Shown here: in pieces, positions 4,214-60,417 of the stretch
How positions within the stretch are numbered: position 1 is the stretch's first letter
Layout: each line of letters starts with the position of its first letter
From: a virus
Lineage: Duplodnaviria; Caudoviricetes
DNA: 64,000 nt
Reading direction: 5' to 3' (one strand)
Virus record (IMG/VR): IMGVR_UViG_3300021431_004525
Made by a program: the position numbers and the translations under genes
The notes under the pieces: generated by a model
The model's database searches: none
Told to the model about the DNA's origin: nothing
Seen by the model: only the letters and a program-made list of their open reading frames with translations

Positions 4214-4229
4214 ATGCTTGCATTTTTAG

Positions 4230-4432
4230 TCAAGAGGGAAGGATTCGAACCCCCAATTACCTTACCTCACATTCGGAACTACTTCAATGATACCTTGTCT
4301 AGAATATATTAATGTTTTGTTCCATCCTGAGAGTTCAGTGCTTTCACAGCCTCAATCATGTTTCATCAGAAATTAACCATCGTCATGGGTTTCCAAATCG
4401 ATTGCGTTCTACCACTTTGAACTATCCTCTCG
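4230..4432 (-). ncRNA. tRNA-like RNA with a large (~130 nt) insertion in place of a normal anticodon/variable region
   Basis: Minus strand: acceptor CGAGAGG/CCTCTTG, D-arm TAGTTCAAAGTGGTAGAAC, T-arm GGGGG-TTCGAAT-CCTTC; own promoter at 4441. Confidence 0.65.
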
Positions 4433-4440
4433 TTTTCGTT

Positions 4441-4474
4441 TGCAAATGTACTACAAATATTTTAAATTACCAAA
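4441..4474 (-). promoter_or_regulatory. Bacteroidota sigma-type promoter
   Basis: Minus strand TTTGG...TACATTTGCA. Confidence 0.75.
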
Positions 4475-4494
4475 CATTTTTTGCTAAAAATTGT

Positions 4495-4772
4495 TAAAAT
4501 ATTGATACTTTTTTAATATTTAATTATATTAATATATAAATTACGTTCACGACTGACCAACAAGGCACACCTTTTCGGCAAGGAGGTGAAAACAGTTTCT
4601 CCGGTTTACAGAGGTCGACATAGCCAAAAAAGGCAAACACCCGTTTCCGAATATTCTTCCAGTCAACGGAAGGCTTAGGTTCTTAAACGGCAGGGTTTCG
4701 TCAATAACCCAATTGTCTGCATCCCTTAATGGGAACGGACAAACCCCTACCCTTTAGGGAGGAGTAATTGAC
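4495..4772 (+). mobile_element. internally deleted derivative of the tnpB element (upstream region + omegaRNA + right end)
   Basis: Three blocks match ~54490-54547, 55448-55510 and 55615-55772; ends in a right-end hairpin + TAATTGAC. Confidence 0.9.
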
Positions 4773-4792
4773 ACTCAGTCAATATTTTTTCT
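4614..4792 (+). ncRNA. orphan TnpB omegaRNA (reRNA) scaffold + putative guide
   Basis: Near-identical to the 3' end of the tnpB element; guide would begin at 4773 (ACTCAGTCAATA...). Confidence 0.65.
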
Positions 4793-4836
4793 TCATACAC
4801 GTTAATAACTCTTTTTGAATTTATATTTAATCCAAA

Positions 4837-5625
4837 TTAACAGTATGACGGTTGACTCGTCTCGGATGCAATGCGTTTGTTGGCAATATCAACATATTCC
4901 TGTGATATTTCAAAGCCAATGTACTTACGGCCGAGCCGTAATGCCGCAATAGCCGTTGTGCCAGAACCCATAAAACAATCGAGCACGATGTCACCCTCAT
5001 TGCTCCAAGAACTTATGTGGTCAATAGCAAGTTGCTCAGGAAATATGGCAGGGTGTTTAAACGCTATTTTGTTAGACGCACAGTTACTTCCTACAGGATA
5101 ATACCAAATATTACCTCTTGCTGTAAATTCGTTTTTTGGAACATACATTTCGTAATGTGCCTCACCATTTCTGTTTGACTTACACGTCCTTGGTTGCATA
5201 TTCTTGACTTTTACGTCACGTATAGGGTTAAATGTCTTGCATTTGCCTTTGCTAAATACAAACATATATTCAAAATGCTGCCTGTATCGCATAGATGTTT
5301 TGTTCCATGTTGGTATTTCCTTGTGGTATATCATGGTGTCATGTAAGTTGAACCCTATTTCTTTAAAGTACAATGCTTGTCTGAAAGATGTACCACTTTC
5401 ACTACCTTTAATGGTAGAGTCACCAACCACCCATACGACAACGCCACCTTGCTTTGTTACTCGGTATAGTTCTTTGGCTACGTTCTCAAAGTCAAAAGAA
5501 TAGCCATTGTATTTACGCAGATTGTCATAAGGTGGTGACGTGACCGTCAAATCAATACATTCGTCATCAAGAAGCCTCATGCCTTCTACATTGTCTTGAC
5601 AATAAATCTTGTTTAGCTCTAACAT
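4837..5625 (-). CDS. N4-cytosine/N6-adenine DNA methyltransferase (beta-type order)
   Basis: TSPPY before HPAIFP and LDCFMGSGTT. Confidence 0.92.
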   Translation of the reverse strand: MLELNKIYCQDNVEGMRLLDDECIDLTVTSPPYDNLRKYNGYSFDFENVAKELYRVTKQGGVVVWVVGDSTIKGSESGTSFRQALYFKEIGFNLHDTMIYHKEIPTWNKTSMRYRQHFEYMFVFSKGKCKTFNPIRDVKVKNMQPRTCKSNRNGEAHYEMYVPKNEFTARGNIWYYPVGSNCASNKIAFKHPAIFPEQLAIDHISSWSNEGDIVLDCFMGSGTTAIAALRLGRKYIGFEISQEYVDIANKRIASETSQPSYC

Positions 5626-13417: not shown

Positions 13418-14959
13418 ATGAGAAGAAGAGTATTAGCAGAAAATATGTCAGGAGGTGATTACTCTAAAGAATATTTCACTATCGTAGCTAAAAGCAGTAT
13501 AAGTTTCTTTTTTAGCGGTTCGACATCTACCAATCAACTTCAATACTCAACTGACAATGGAAGTACTTGGAGTACAGGTTCAGTGTATATATCTGGGACT
13601 AGTGGTGATAAGGTGATGTTCAAGGGAACGTGTATACCAACAACAAGTTCTCCATATGGTATTGGACAATTCGAGATTACAGGTAATTTCGATGTTGAGG
13701 GTAATGCAATGTCACTACTGTATGGAGACGGCTTCAAAGGAGAGACAAGCCTTAGTGGAAAGAGTTGTGCATTTAGTCATTTATTCAAAGGCTGCACATC
13801 GTTGGTAAGTGCCGAAAACCTATCATTACCGGCTACAACATTAGCTTATGAGTGTTATGAAAGTATGTTCGAAGATTGTACTAGTTTAACTACAGCACCA
13901 ACTCTACCAGCCACAACACTAGCACAAAACTGCTATTCTAATATGTTTAAAGGGTGTACCGGTCTAGCCACATCTCCGAGTCTACCAGCGACAACGTTAG
14001 CAGGATACTGTTATCATGCTATGTTCCAAGGTACAAACGTATTACCAGACTGCACGAATATAGACTTTAGAAGTCCCACCGTTATTGGAAGTGGAGGACT
14101 TAACGGACTATTCTATGGAACTAAACTGACCGATGCACAACTAGATACAATTCTTAAGAGCCACGGAATAACGAACTATTCACTGCCTTCCACAACTTTA
14201 GCAGGATACTGTTATTCAGATATGTTCCGAGATTGTACTAGTTTAACAACTGCTCCAAGTCTACCAGCCACAACACTAGCACAAAACTGCTATTCTAATA
14301 TGTTCGACGGTTGTACTAGTTTGACAACTGCTCCAGCATCATTGCCAGCCACAACATTAGAATACGGTTGTTATATTCAGATGTTCAATAATTGTACTAG
14401 TTTAACAACTGCTCCAGAGTTGTCCGCTACAAAGTCAGCCGATTTCTGTTGTAGTTCTATGTTCTCCCGTTGTACTAGTTTGACAACTGCCCCAACATCA
14501 TTGCCAGCCACATCAGCACAATACTGTTTTAGTGGTATGTTCTATAATTGTTCTAGTCTTACATCAGCTCCAACTCTACCCGCCACAACATTACGAAGTA
14601 ACTGTTATTCAGCTATGTTCGAAAATTGTACTAGTTTAACAACTGCTCCAAGTCTACCGGCTACAACACTAGCAAATGATTGCTATTCTAATATGTTCTA
14701 TAATTGTTCTAGTCTTACATCAGCTCCAAGGCTACCGGCTAAAACGTTAGTAAGTAGTTGTTATTATCAGATGTTCTCCGGTTGTAGTAACTTATCAAGT
14801 ATTACTTGTCTAGCAACTGATATATCAGCATCATCTTGCACAAGGAATTGGTTACTTAGAGTCAATTCGTTTGGTACGTTCACAACACCTTCATCAACTA
14901 ATTGGAAAACTGACTCTTCTAATGGCATTCCAGAAGGTTGGATTAGAATAAATTCATAA
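13418..14959 (+). CDS. BspA-like leucine-rich-repeat protein
   Basis: About a dozen LPATTLAxxCYxxMFxxCTSLTTAP repeats; IPEGW C-terminal cap. Confidence 0.85.
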   Translation: MRRRVLAENMSGGDYSKEYFTIVAKSSISFFFSGSTSTNQLQYSTDNGSTWSTGSVYISGTSGDKVMFKGTCIPTTSSPYGIGQFEITGNFDVEGNAMSLLYGDGFKGETSLSGKSCAFSHLFKGCTSLVSAENLSLPATTLAYECYESMFEDCTSLTTAPTLPATTLAQNCYSNMFKGCTGLATSPSLPATTLAGYCYHAMFQGTNVLPDCTNIDFRSPTVIGSGGLNGLFYGTKLTDAQLDTILKSHGITNYSLPSTTLAGYCYSDMFRDCTSLTTAPSLPATTLAQNCYSNMFDGCTSLTTAPASLPATTLEYGCYIQMFNNCTSLTTAPELSATKSADFCCSSMFSRCTSLTTAPTSLPATSAQYCFSGMFYNCSSLTSAPTLPATTLRSNCYSAMFENCTSLTTAPSLPATTLANDCYSNMFYNCSSLTSAPRLPAKTLVSSCYYQMFSGCSNLSSITCLATDISASSCTRNWLLRVNSFGTFTTPSSTNWKTDSSNGIPEGWIRINS

Positions 14960-18722: not shown

Positions 18723-18747
18723 ATTAATATCCTTTCATCTTTCGGAA

Positions 18748-18781
18748 TGCAAAGGTACTGCAAATTTCTGAAAGTACCAAA
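18748..18781 (-). promoter_or_regulatory. Bacteroidota sigma-type promoter
   Basis: TTTGG...TACCTTTGCA. Confidence 0.75.
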
Positions 18782-18800
18782 TATTTTCTGTTAAAAATTA

Positions 18801-32192: not shown

Positions 32193-32503
32193 AGGAAACC
32201 GGTCATAAAATGTTCTTTATACTCCTTATACGTTATTTTACCCTTATGGTTTATGAAAGCGTCAATATAGTTCGCATTATCCCTATCATCAGACAAAGCC
32301 AACTCATTGCCACTAAGTGCTTCAAGTCTCAAATCCGGTGGCTCATTGAAGAACTCATCCGGCTCAAAGTCGGAAAAATCTATTTTATCTTTAATGATTT
32401 CAGCAGCCAAGTTCTTCCGTGCGTCATCAAAATTTTGTTCCGCTTCAATTATTTTCCTAATTAACCTCTCATATTTGTCCATAAACTCATTTTTAAGACT
32501 CAC
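32189..32503 (-). CDS. hypothetical protein
   Basis: ORF track. Confidence 0.6.
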   Translation of the reverse strand: MSLKNEFMDKYERLIRKIIEAEQNFDDARKNLAAEIIKDKIDFSDFEPDEFFNEPPDLRLEALSGNELALSDDRDNANYIDAFINHKGKITYKEYKEHFMTGFL

Positions 32504-32755
32504 AGAGCCGTTTTATATATTCAGATGATAAACTATACGTTTTAGAAATTTTAACGTCTTAGAAACGATTTTTTCTGTTTATAGTGCAAAGTTAGGAAAA
32601 ATAAACGATAATACCAAAATATTTTAGTTAAAGTAAGTTAAATTCAAGAAAAAGGTGGTACTTAATGGTACCGTCCAACTCTTATCTTCTAATAGTTTAA
32701 GGGTCAAAGAGATAAATTATTAGAATGCCGTAAAAGTCTGCGAAACCGGCCAAGC

Positions 32756-32872
32756 CTACACGCGAAGGAACGCCCGGACATAGTAGTTGTAGTTCTTACG
32801 GTTGGCATCCACACTACCACCGTTCGTATACACGCGGTATGCGTGGCTACTATCATACTCAGAACTCGACCA
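32756..32872 (-). repeat. putative DGR variable region VR1
   Basis: Versus VR2: 23 differences at codon positions 1-2 and only 2 at position 3 over 23 codons. Confidence 0.8.
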
Positions 32873-40254: not shown

Positions 40255-41496
40255 TTATGCTGCATAACGAACAAATAATTCATCAAGCCATCCATTATGT
40301 CTTGCCACATCGTATGCACCATTACTATATTTTCTAAATTCGTTTCTCGTCTTATATTTCTTTGCTTCGGCAAAAACGTTCTCCTTTGTCCAGAATCCTC
40401 TTGGTTTTTGTACTTCTTTAAACCAATCCATTTCGTTCAACCAACCATTTACTCTTGCAACTTGGTATGCTTTATTGTATGATGTTTTAAACTCACTTTT
40501 TGTTTTGAACTTCTTGGCAGCTTCAAATACATTCTGCTTGATATTCCAATATCCGTATGGCTTTAGTAATGATGTGAACCAACTCATTTCCTCAAGCCAA
40601 CCATTTCGTCTTGCAATATCGTATGCTGTATGACAACCATCAGAAAATTTTTTTCTTGTCTGATACTTCTTTGCTTCCGCAAACACTTTCTCTTTTGACC
40701 AGTATTCATTTGGCCTTTGTGATGATATAAGCCAAACCATTTCATCAATCCAATTATTTTTACAAGCAAAAGTGTATGCGCTGCTACAACCTTTTTTAAA
40801 TTCTCTTTTTGTTTTATATTTCTTTGCTTCTGAGAAAACCATCTCTTTTGTCCAGAAAAAATTTGGCTTCCTCCCTTCTTCAAACCAATTCATTTCTTTC
40901 AACAGACCTTTTCGTCTTGCCGCAACGTATGCACTACCACAACCACTCTGAAATTCATACTTCGTTTTATATTTCTTTGCTTCCGCAAATATAGTTTTTT
41001 TGTTCCATTTTCCACTATTAATTGCGCCCAATGAGCCACTACCAATACCGGTTTTTGCAATATTTAAAACATTATATCCTTTATTTTTATAATAGTTCTT
41101 CCAATAATCTTCTCTATCCAATCCTTCCTCGATTGTTAGATTATCCTCAATAATCTCCATTGCCGGAACTTCAAAACCATTTGCATCTGCATATTTGTAT
41201 ACTGTATCTTCTTCTTTTGTTCTGTGTCGACAAATGGTATCAACCTTATGTATTGTTCTACCAATGTAAATTGAGTTTGTTTCTTTGAAATAATATTTGT
41301 AAACACAATCAATTTTATTAGTTAATAGTTTTACTCTACCATCTTCAAACCAATTCATTTCATTAATCCATCCTTCTCGATAAGCAATCGCGTGCGCACT
41401 TGGACACCCTGTTTGAAAATCTGATTTTGTCTCATATTTTTTTGCTTCTGCAAACACATTATCCTTTGTCCAGAATCCTCTTGGTTTTCTTTCCAT
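40255..41496 (-). CDS. GIY-YIG homing endonuclease with C-terminal helical repeats
   Basis: CVYKY.....IYIGRT; repeats WxKExVFAEAKKYxT..EF....AY..A..NGWL. Confidence 0.8.
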   Translation of the reverse strand: MERKPRGFWTKDNVFAEAKKYETKSDFQTGCPSAHAIAYREGWINEMNWFEDGRVKLLTNKIDCVYKYYFKETNSIYIGRTIHKVDTICRHRTKEEDTVYKYADANGFEVPAMEIIEDNLTIEEGLDREDYWKNYYKNKGYNVLNIAKTGIGSGSLGAINSGKWNKKTIFAEAKKYKTKYEFQSGCGSAYVAARRKGLLKEMNWFEEGRKPNFFWTKEMVFSEAKKYKTKREFKKGCSSAYTFACKNNWIDEMVWLISSQRPNEYWSKEKVFAEAKKYQTRKKFSDGCHTAYDIARRNGWLEEMSWFTSLLKPYGYWNIKQNVFEAAKKFKTKSEFKTSYNKAYQVARVNGWLNEMDWFKEVQKPRGFWTKENVFAEAKKYKTRNEFRKYSNGAYDVARHNGWLDELFVRYAA

Positions 41497-48199: not shown

Positions 48200-48631
48200 A
48201 ACTTCTATCTTTATATTGATTCATATTTATTTTGCATCCTCTATTGTATAGTCTTGTACCTCATGCTCAACGACCATGACATTTGCATCGTCACCGGTAG
48301 CATAGCAATCTACATAGTCCATAATATCATCCACATCGTTAATGTCAGTATCAACGATAACACGCATTGTAACGTTAAGATAAATTTTACTCATTGTTAT
48401 ATTATTTTATGTTAATCAAATTCAACTTCTTCGCCAATTAACTCATGTGCTTCATATATAGCACTTATTTCACCAGAAGAATCAATTGCATCTACAATTT
48501 CATAAGCATAATCATCTATTTCACCGGTCTTTTCAATCCGGTCTTTCAACTGCTCAATTAATTTTTGATTTCTTTCTGTCATGTCTTGTATAATTTACAA
48601 CCATTTTCACTTGTAATTGACAAATACAACC

Positions 48632-54200: not shown

Positions 54201-54349
54201 ATTAATTGATTTTTTAAGTGTTTATATTTTATTTATTTTGATGGTACAAAGGTACAAATAATTTCTAAATTACCCAAATATTTTCACCACTTTAACACAA
54301 ATTTAACACTACGCGGCAGAATGATTGATACCAAGTGTCTGTAATTCAT

Positions 54350-55772
54350 ATAATTCTTTCAAGGAAACTCCATCCTTTAGGGTGGAGAGGAATTGAAAGT
54401 GGTCTTTTATTATTAAACTTATTTATTTTTTCATTTGCAAATTTACAATGTTTTCGGCAGAAAACAAAATATTTTTTGCAAAAAATATTTAATTATTGAT
54501 ATTTTTTATATTTATTAACATATTTATATATAAATTACGTTCACGACGTGAACAATACATAAATAAAATGATACTGACGTATAACATACAACTGCAACCG
54601 GATAAAACCACATATGACTACTGGGTTTCACTCCTTACAGATACTGCAAAAGCATACGACCTTTGCAGCGGCCTGCTTGCAGATAACAATACACCACTTA
54701 CCATCAAGTCAGTACATAATACATGCTATAACGTGGTACGTGAACAATTCCCCAACCTACCGGCACAATCCGTAATACGTGTACAAAAAGAAGCAATGTC
54801 CGCACTAAGAAGCAGAAAAGGCAACAAGCATAACGGAGATAAGCCAACAAAACATAACTTATCTCTCACACTCGATAAACGCATGTATTCAAGGCTTACA
54901 CCGGAAAACATTGCAATATGCGGAGGCATAAAGGGAAAACGCACCACCGTACCATTCGTCACCTACGACAAGGAAAAACAGATGTTTTCCATGTATAAGC
55001 CGTGTGACCCATTATTATTCCTACGTAGCAATACCCTATGGCTTTCTGTACCATTTAATGTACCGGATACCGTAGTATGCAATGACAACTCCATCGGTGT
55101 GGACTTGGGTATGAAACGTCTATTCGTCACATCTGAAGGTAATGCCTTCGTGGATAAGGAATACCTTCGTAATCGTAGAAAACTGCGTTACCTTAAACGC
55201 TGTTTGCAGAGTAAAGGTACTAAATCCGCAAAGAGACATTTGAAAAAAGTATCACGTAGGGAACGTAATATGTCAAGAGATATGCAGAACCGTGCGGTTC
55301 TTGCATTGATTGAATCCACCGATGCCGGTGTGATTGTAATGGAGGATTTAAGCAAGATTAAGAAAAACACGTCAAAGAGCAATGACGGATTTAAACGTAA
55401 GCGTCACAACAACGCAATTGCGCAAGTGCCGTTTGCGGAGTTCAAGACACGACTGACCAACAAGGCACACCTTTTCGGCAAGGAGGTGAAAACAGTTTCT
55501 CCGGTTTACACCAGTCAAACAGATTGCAGGAATGACAAGCGTAATGGCAAGCGTAATGGTTGCCGTTACTACTGCAAGGATGGTTTGGTATTGGATGCAG
55601 ACTGGAACGCAGCAGTCAACATAGCCAAGAAAGGCAAACACCCGTTTTCGAATATTCTTCCAGTCGACGGAAGGCTTAGGTTCTTAAACGGCAGGGTTTC
55701 GTCAATAACCCAATTGTCTGCATCCCTTAATGGGAACGGACAAGCCCCTCACTTTAGGGAGGGGTAATTGAC
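54350..55772 (+). mobile_element. IS200/IS605-family element lacking tnpA (IS1341-like)
   Basis: Left-end hairpin CTCCATCC-TTTA-GGGTGGAG from 54367; right-end hairpin CCCCTCACTTTAGGGAGGGG + TAATTGAC; left boundary inferred. Confidence 0.82.
54568..55767 (+). CDS. tnpB: RNA-guided endonuclease TnpB
   Basis: RuvC I IGVDLG, RuvC II VMEDL, YTSQ, RuvC III LDADWNAAVNI; all three acidic residues present. Confidence 0.93.
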   Translation: MILTYNIQLQPDKTTYDYWVSLLTDTAKAYDLCSGLLADNNTPLTIKSVHNTCYNVVREQFPNLPAQSVIRVQKEAMSALRSRKGNKHNGDKPTKHNLSLTLDKRMYSRLTPENIAICGGIKGKRTTVPFVTYDKEKQMFSMYKPCDPLLFLRSNTLWLSVPFNVPDTVVCNDNSIGVDLGMKRLFVTSEGNAFVDKEYLRNRRKLRYLKRCLQSKGTKSAKRHLKKVSRRERNMSRDMQNRAVLALIESTDAGVIVMEDLSKIKKNTSKSNDGFKRKRHNNAIAQVPFAEFKTRLTNKAHLFGKEVKTVSPVYTSQTDCRNDKRNGKRNGCRYYCKDGLVLDADWNAAVNIAKKGKHPFSNILPVDGRLRFLNGRVSSITQLSASLNGNGQAPHFREG

Positions 55773-55792
55773 ATATTAAACATTGAATAATA
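55615..55792 (+). ncRNA. TnpB omegaRNA overlapping the tnpB 3' end + guide (ATATTAAACATTGAAT...)
   Basis: Hairpins such as CCGTTT/AAACGG and TCCC-TTAAT-GGGA; conserved in the orphan copy. Confidence 0.7.
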
Positions 55793-59423: not shown

Positions 59424-60417
59424 AATCTATAAATGTTTTAATTTGATAGCGCAAAGATACAACAAATTTATGAATTATCCAAATATTTTCGTCACTTTAA
59501 CACAATTTTAACACTTATTCTTTAATAAAGACACCAAGAAATCCCATTAATCTTTAGTTTGTGGGTAGTTCACTTACATATTATATTAGCAATCCGGTCA
59601 ATCCTTAACGCATCATCAAAAATTTCCTCAATGGTATTGCCACGACCAATCATATTAAATTTAGATTTATATTTCTTGTCAAGTTCAATGGCTTGTTCTT
59701 TTGTGACAAGAACTTCTACATAGCCATCATAATCATCATTAAAACCGGTACCTTGTACGTCAATACCCATCCTTCTTAATTCATCGGCAAGATAATTCAG
59801 ACGATACTGGCGACCTTTGCAGTCATAGTAATGTACTTCTGCGTATACCTTTTCCATATTTTTATTGTTTATGCCCAACGTTTCCAATATGCTATTGAAT
59901 TTGATGTACTGAAGCCGAAATACTCTTTTACCCTATATTCTGTCGCATCACCCTCGTTAGCGTTGAATGTGGCTCTCATATCCCACTTTCCACGTTTCTC
60001 AACTCCATTGTTAAATACCTCACCAATAAGGTTTTCCTTTGGAGTTTTCCAAATGACAAGCAATGCCCCATTATCGTGCTTGTATATTGCAATTTTTACC
60101 ATATCTTTTATTTATTACTATACGTTTTCAAATTCGTTTGGTGTAAACTCGTCATCATCTGTATCTCGCTCACTTAAGTGTATTGCCACACAGCCAGCGA
60201 TAAAGTCTTTGAGAGAAATCGTATCATCACCCAATGCCCTCTGAATCATGTCGGCATGGAATAAATTGTAGTGGCTTTCGAGCAGCCATGAAAGTTTTTC
60301 GTCCATAATATTTATCTCCTTTTAATTTTTATTTCTTTTGTGATGCAAAGGTACAAAAAAATGCGCAGACCACAAAATAATCTGCGCTAATAAATGTTAA
60401 TTAATTGTTAAAATTTA

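Follow-up and report, generated by a model that had tools for sequence, protein, structure and literature searches.

Among elements of the IS605 family, those of the IS1341 group carry tnpB as their only gene, and the TnpB of ISDra2 acts with an RNA from the right end of its element. P elements and Ac/Ds provide examples of internally deleted, non-autonomous DNA transposons that arose from interrupted gap repair; IS605 elements move as single strands, and to our knowledge decay by this route has not been described for them. Protein-less mini-elements of the IS200/IS605 type, termed PATEs (palindrome-associated transposable elements), often encode omegaRNAs (Meers et al., PMC10055086), and omegaRNA-only elements that need a TnpB in trans have already been described in that form. 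TldR is a domesticated, nuclease-dead TnpB with guide RNAs (PMC10705468).

Here we compare these systems with a locus in 64,000 nt of Caudoviricetes DNA (IMG/VR record IMGVR_UViG_3300021431_004525; the whole stretch is called the window below). The window holds an intact tnpB-only element at 54350–55772 and, ~51 kb away, a remnant of 275 nt derived from such an IS605-family element at 4498–4772. An initial annotation had taken the shorter copy for a stand-alone omegaRNA cassette with a new guide, a small step towards a domesticated multi-guide system. On balance, we consider it rather probable that this copy is a relic, a young and immobile deletion derivative of a tnpB-only element of the IS1341 type.

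The intact element and its omegaRNA

The intact copy (54350–55772, plus strand) has a left-end hairpin at 54368–54387 and a terminal hairpin before its final TAATTGAC. Its tnpB gene (54568–55767, plus strand) encodes a protein of 399 aa that matches the Pfam families Cas12f1-like_TNB (2.3e-13) and OrfB_IS605 (2.7e-7). Residues D179, E259 and D345, which form the RuvC D-E-D triad, are invariant among 29 homologues, and by this triad the resident TnpB, encoded in the same genome as the remnant, is predicted to be catalytically intact. Two further intact copies (L001 and L011), ~95% identical, were found at other sites in related phage contigs. Since the three copies at three sites diverge directly after TAATTGAC, and TTCAT precedes the left end of each (54345–54349, plus strand, in the window), the element can be bounded at 54350–55772 and TTCAT assigned as its transposon-adjacent motif (TAM); the same motif precedes the match to the remnant's guide in the empty site described below. 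TnpB domains with the catalytic triad, hairpins at both ends and insertion 3′ of TTCAT without target duplication all place the element in the IS200/IS605 group.

A protein search with TnpB returned 1666 relatives, the nearest named genomes being those of Prevotella and of rumen or faecal Bacteroidales. The flanking phage genes have relatives on contigs of 100–680 kb, which identifies the host genome as that of a jumbo phage (the window's own ENA scaffold measures 391,794 bp); the element-bearing genome is that of a giant phage of gut or rumen Bacteroidales. GenBank phages gave no DNA match to either copy. No Y1 transposase (TnpA) lies within the element, and three complete related jumbo phages encode one PF01797 protein each (G014, 83652–84014; G025, 186545–186922; G026, 32426–32785), suggesting that these phages are themselves equipped to move tnpB-only elements and minis. 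With three intact copies at three sites, the element is mobile and multi-copy in this phage group. The 106.7-kb contig of the closest IMG/VR relative, G002 (IMGVR_UViG_3300028048_000091), stops at both ends inside right-end hairpins of the element (22–55 and 106651–106683); its assembly probably broke at repeated element copies, which would imply several copies in that phage.

To describe the RNA, we aligned 36 distinct homologues over their 3′ regions; no two have the same flank. The alignment strongly supports seven helices and a pseudoknot, with 89.4% of cells paired as against 30–43% when the partners are slid; both sides have changed in 30 of the 42 pairs, and the covariation score is 0.471, compared with 0.06–0.12. 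In the pseudoknot, GTCAAy in the P5 loop pairs with rTTGAC, the six bases directly before the guide, and compensatory changes are seen at both ends, columns 116/220 and 121/215 covarying among the homologues. A pairing suggested by RNAalifold, between GACU in the stretch deleted from the remnant and the element end, was dropped once this covarying pseudoknot had been found. Inside the tnpB coding region, ~150 nt ahead of the core, is one more hairpin, P1, which the 36 homologues conserve; in its best register 86% of cells are paired, against 36–43% when slid, and the window's family pairs one register over. From the same 36 homologues we built a covariance model, R1 (158 positions, 36 pairs), which finds the core of the intact copy at full length (55618–55772, plus strand; 142.8 bits), with P1 at ~55468–55488 and the guide starting at 55773. 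Rfam holds no family for this RNA and returned nothing at gathering score; a HEARO match was dismissed, as it lay on the opposite strand and reached 20 of the 83 bits needed. The analysis supplies a family-specific omegaRNA model with its pseudoknot, together with the TAM.

The family of the remnant's parent resembles the IS1341 group and ISDra2 in having a TnpB with a RuvC triad, subterminal hairpins, a 5-nt TAM, an omegaRNA overlapping the 3′ end of tnpB, a pseudoknot beside the guide, and a guide formed by the right flank. It differs in that its RNA adds the conserved hairpin ~150 nt upstream of the core, and the remnant itself differs further, having neither tnpB, nor a left end, nor 99 nt of the long RNA.

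Segments, joints and class of the remnant

The likeness of the remnant to the intact copy is far beyond chance. A repeat finder matched 4548–4610 to 55448–55510 (100% over 63 nt), 4609–4748 to 55610–55749 (95%) and 4471–4553 to 54465–54547 (77%). Three segments, all on the plus strand, make up the element-derived stretch: a 55-nt piece of the tnpB leader (4498–4553), a 63-nt piece of the tnpB 3′ coding region that holds P1 (4548–4610, the hairpin at ~4568–4588), and the terminal 156 nt with the omegaRNA core (4617–4772). Open reading frames inside it reach at most 39 aa, hence it contains no protein gene. Both copies terminate in TAATTGAC, at 4772 and at 55772, so that the right end and terminal stretch are preserved much as the initial annotation had described them; the guides, read from 4773 and from 55773 onward, do differ between the copies, as it had also stated.

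Two of the joints are internal to the element. The leader piece ends in CACGAC (4548–4553), and this motif occurs in the intact copy at 54542 and 55448, exactly 906 bp apart, bearing out the proposal that 906 bp were lost between CACGAC microhomologies. A second loss, proposed to span about 100 bp between CAGTCAA repeats, is likewise real and amounts to 99 bp (55511–55609), but its joint (4611–4616, plus strand) is not a clean CAGTCAA: it reads TTTACAGAGGTCGACAT in the copy, carries 3–4 substitutions and offers at most 2 nt (CA) of sure microhomology.

The third joint, at 4494–4497 on the plus strand, marks the left boundary. Sibling contigs L315 and L317 match the window through TTAA at these positions and then run into a gene of 341 aa, and the leader of intact elements reads cTTAAAATATTGATAC; TTAA is common to the stop codon region of that gene and to the element leader. 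Together these matches point to a deletion that removed the rest of the 341-aa gene along with the left end of the element. The suggestion that the region upstream of tnpB had been kept consequently holds for 4498–4553 and not for 4440–4497, where the phage has a minus-strand promoter of its own that belongs to a 23-copy family and merely resembles an internal stretch of the element. DNA to the left of ~4498 is phage backbone, identical in element-free siblings, and contains no left-end hairpin, in agreement with the view that this is not a normal mobilisable mini-element. As its left end is absent, the remnant is fixed in place and not mobilisable.

R1 recovers the remnant core (4617–4772) at full length, over model positions 1–158, with 128.5 bits. 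Helices P2–P7 are all kept, with one C·A mismatch that is common to the intact copy L001 and one bulged A, and both pseudoknot strands are present, GTCAAT in the P5 loop and ATTGAC at the element end. The remnant thus retains a complete omegaRNA core as well as P1, only the 99-nt middle of the long RNA being missing.

Like a PATE, the remnant has no protein gene and a length of a few hundred bases, and the omegaRNA at its right end is whole and would depend on the TnpB of another element. Unlike PATEs, which have hairpins at both ends and are moved by TnpA, it would spread only by recombination. Because it has no left end, it falls outside both PATEs and IS605 MITEs, and is best called an LE-less solo omegaRNA remnant. 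OmegaRNA cores without an upstream tnpB also occur in related jumbo phages (G028, 68482–68618, L303; G032, 199568–199731, L304; G036, 14825–14957, L306; G031, 193904–194049, L307). The core in G028 scores 89.7 bits and has a left-end hairpin ~60 nt upstream; left-end-like hairpins in G028, G032 and G036 make these three PATE-like, and G032 also has a P1-like motif. The G031 core begins directly after TTCAT and adjoins the 3′ end of a tRNA.

Empty alleles, the guide and the age of the locus

The methyltransferase gene to the right of the remnant (4837–5625, minus strand) is identical in sibling contigs. Contigs with this identical gene fall into two classes, carrying either the cassette (the window's scaffold) or an empty allele (at least four contigs, from related samples) in which the methyltransferase gene is followed by 37 nt, the 341-aa gene and a tRNA-like gene. 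Read in the orientation of the window, the empty alleles in L315–L317 show GTCTTCAT and then 26 nt identical to 4773–4798. The uninterrupted site, TTCAT plus guide, falls in codons 9–10 of the 341-aa gene, and the insertion left no target duplication. With TTCAT and the 26 nt uninterrupted in siblings, the guide segment of the remnant (4773–4798, plus strand) is the old flank of an ordinary insertion, an origin newly found here through the sibling empty allele, and the claim that the guide had been newly acquired falls. A perfect TTCAT + 26-nt target, of the kind that the initial annotation had recommended looking for, is thus present in sibling phages. Every contig with the gene next to the intact element at 54 kb also has the element, contigs from the empty-allele samples among them.

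Neither Pfam nor PHROG has a family for the 341-aa gene, and comparison showed that it is not a paralogue of the window's 337-aa genes. Just upstream of where it lay, at 4810–4813, the window carries three clustered substitutions relative to L315–L317, which change the ATG start of the gene to GTG in the cassette allele.

The cassette is known from the window's scaffold and one short Logan contig with the same joints, compared with at least four contigs for the empty allele, and on these contigs it appears to be the minority allele. Exact words of the cassette scaffold gave nothing in IMG/VR, and JGI metagenomes yielded two intact copies only and no second cassette; neither collection held an orthologous cassette. 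It is also absent from G002, where the gene order at the locus differs, so that the comparison bears on the left boundary only. Within the window, neither guide has further matches beyond chance at up to three mismatches.

The cassette and the empty alleles agree at 99% or more in their flanks, so the remnant is young, too young for neutral decay or purifying selection to have become visible. Its parent was another member of the family: the leader is 96% identical to that of L011 and 83% to the window's intact copy, the P1 piece is 100% identical to the window's copy and the core 94%, a mosaic that excludes derivation from the window's own intact element. The private substitutions of the remnant probably predate its decay. 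At so young a locus an intact scaffold is expected by default and is no evidence of selection, and the flanks place the remnant too recently for substitution counts to form a valid selection test; nothing points to its maintenance by selection, and it would be intact because it is recent.

A search with R1 for further omegaRNA copies in the window, another of the recommended checks, gave a third and far more decayed relic (18.9 bits over 59482–59573). It consists of a lone right-end hairpin of ~35 nt (59540–59573, plus strand) that ends in TAGTTCAC, belongs to a related subfamily and resembles the terminal hairpins of L194 and L196. The window therefore holds a decay series of intact copy, remnant and ~35-nt relic, and the lone hairpin indicates that such remnants do decay in this genome. 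Two occurrences of GTAATTGAC, at 48613 and 60978, were rejected as further relics as they have no hairpin context.

Decay, homing and domestication

Decay of a full element accounts for this arrangement in a few steps. The element inserted 3′ of TTCAT in codons 9–10 of the 341-aa gene, between the methyltransferase and tRNA-like genes. One deletion then ran from the stop of the gene (TTAA) into the element leader, removing the remainder of the gene and the left end; another took 906 bp of tnpB between the CACGAC repeats, and a third 99 bp. The outcome is 55 nt of leader, P1 and the complete omegaRNA core joined to the old insertion flank. A few features speak weakly against plain decay: all three deletions spare exactly P1, the core and a promoter-like TTGATA-17-TATATT; the private changes lie in loops or are neutral for pairing, except for one bulged A; a terminator-like hairpin and T6 follow at a sensible guide length; and the minis in related phages keep the omegaRNA core too. 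They carry little weight because the remnant is young, its private changes are probably older than the decay, and the flank belongs to the old gene's coding sequence. Even as a mere relic, the remnant would document the decay of IS605 elements in jumbo phages.

It is possible, though we doubt it, that the remnant is instead a working guide RNA in trans and a non-autonomous homing allele. It would be transcribed from its leader, loaded onto the TnpB of the intact copy and, in mixed infections, direct cutting of TTCAT + guide in the 341-aa gene of siblings; recombinational repair would then transfer the cassette, and with it the gene loss, to these genomes, or else the cut would merely harm a competitor. 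Its omegaRNA core and pseudoknot are complete, the cognate TnpB has an intact RuvC triad, and a perfect TAM + 26-nt target exists in co-circulating siblings that themselves carry the intact element, so that the RNA, if transcribed, should be accepted by the resident TnpB, and its use in trans is plausible. PATEs that encode omegaRNAs are presumed to depend on a TnpB supplied in trans (PMC10055086), and homing without TnpA has been discussed for IStrons (PMC13565253). Doubts arise mainly over transcription. At the very edge of the left joint the leader keeps the hexamers TTGATA (4502–4507) and TATATT (4525–4530) with a 17-nt spacer, a sigma-70-like arrangement (10/12), but this is not the host-type consensus of Bacteroidetes promoters, such matches are frequent in AT-rich DNA (5 found against 2.6 expected), and the TAnnTTTG box of that type is absent from the plus strand of 4498–4553; judging from gene order, antisense read-through from the methyltransferase operon is also probable. 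At the other end, a hairpin and six T follow after ~18–24 nt of guide, as would suit a functional RNA, yet guide bases 6–11 (GTCAAT, 4778–4783) are complementary to ATTGAC at the element end and can compete with the pseudoknot, and the 99-nt middle of the long RNA is missing. Were the RNA used, the usual logic of TnpB homing would apply, here between phage genomes (PMC10055086; PMC13565253), and cleavage of the sibling empty allele would reflect ordinary IS605/TnpB homing specificity rather than a new one. The same complementarity, with its six T, could make the transcript a decoy whose guide folds back on the element end, hides the seed and soaks up TnpB, and ATTGAC is in fact also a pseudoknot strand. 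We give this very little credence: the stem is short and AT-rich, its benefit is not evident, and the empty alleles carry the identical flank as part of the old gene's coding sequence, which makes the guide hairpin an accident of the insertion site.

Distinctly less probable than trans use as such is a combined reading in which homing first gave rise to the cassette as a by-product and the cassette now acts as a non-autonomous homing allele. TnpB would have cut an empty site in a mixed infection, and the broken end would have taken an element-bearing genome as its template, copying the right end with the omegaRNA first, with two template switches at short homologies and rejoining at TTAA after ~1 kb of resection. 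This would have produced a minimal unit of promoter, omegaRNA and guide which, with TnpB in trans, would spread by its own action among the phages and carry the loss of the 341-aa gene with it. Several microhomology-type joints and the kept break-proximal end would fit interrupted gap repair after a TnpB cut, and they recall P elements and Ac/Ds, where several internal deletions at short or imperfect microhomology likewise leave the end nearest the break; for those elements gap repair is the established origin, whereas here it is conjectured from the joints. A multi-guide system in the making, with extra cassettes aiming one TnpB at several useful targets, is scarcely credible and is refuted as it stands. 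Its sole attraction is that one TnpB coexists with two scaffolds and different guides. A CRISPR-like system would have several conserved units with non-self targets; here there is one unit and no array, present as a minority allele whose flanks match the empty site at 99% or better and not conserved in relatives (IMG/VR, JGI metagenomes and G002, the closest IMG/VR relative), and its guide is an insertion flank that targets the empty allele of the phage itself. The search for foreign targets gave no credible one: the single IMG/VR match to TTCAT + guide covers 14 bases of the guide, lies in unrelated coding DNA and is about what chance would produce. TldR (PMC10705468) offers a parallel in a TnpB-type guide RNA kept outside a mobile context; in contrast to it, TnpB here keeps D179, E259 and D345, the guide targets an empty allele and not a promoter, and conservation is lacking. 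Decay of a full element therefore remains the explanation we favour. If the RNA is nevertheless used, the locus would be a natural TnpB guide unit freed from transposition, with RNA-guided cutting between the genomes of co-infecting phages as its sole means of spread or competition, and with the cassette and the exact TAM/target alleles both in hand, TnpB homing in phages is directly testable.

The surroundings of the locus have features of their own. To the left of the remnant lies the tRNA-like gene (4229–4432, minus strand) with a promoter at 4440–4487 of the consensus Bacteroidetes type. ARAGORN reports this gene only when introns are allowed, as a tRNA-Gln(TTG)-like gene whose anticodon loop contains a 116-nt insert, and Rfam gives no tRNA match; its conservation is 95% in G002 and 99% or more among sibling strains. 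The conserved minus-strand promoter motif occurs at 23 or more sites in the window (for example, 18747–18794, 54223–54310 and 59428–59515) and stands upstream of most genes; in reverse complement it reads TTTG, ~19 nt, TAnnTTTG, with extended flanks. Both the intact element and the 59.5-kb relic lie directly beside such a motif. Elsewhere, the window contains diverged direct-repeat arrays at 13827–14854 and 40273–41488, with periods of 78 nt and 153 nt.
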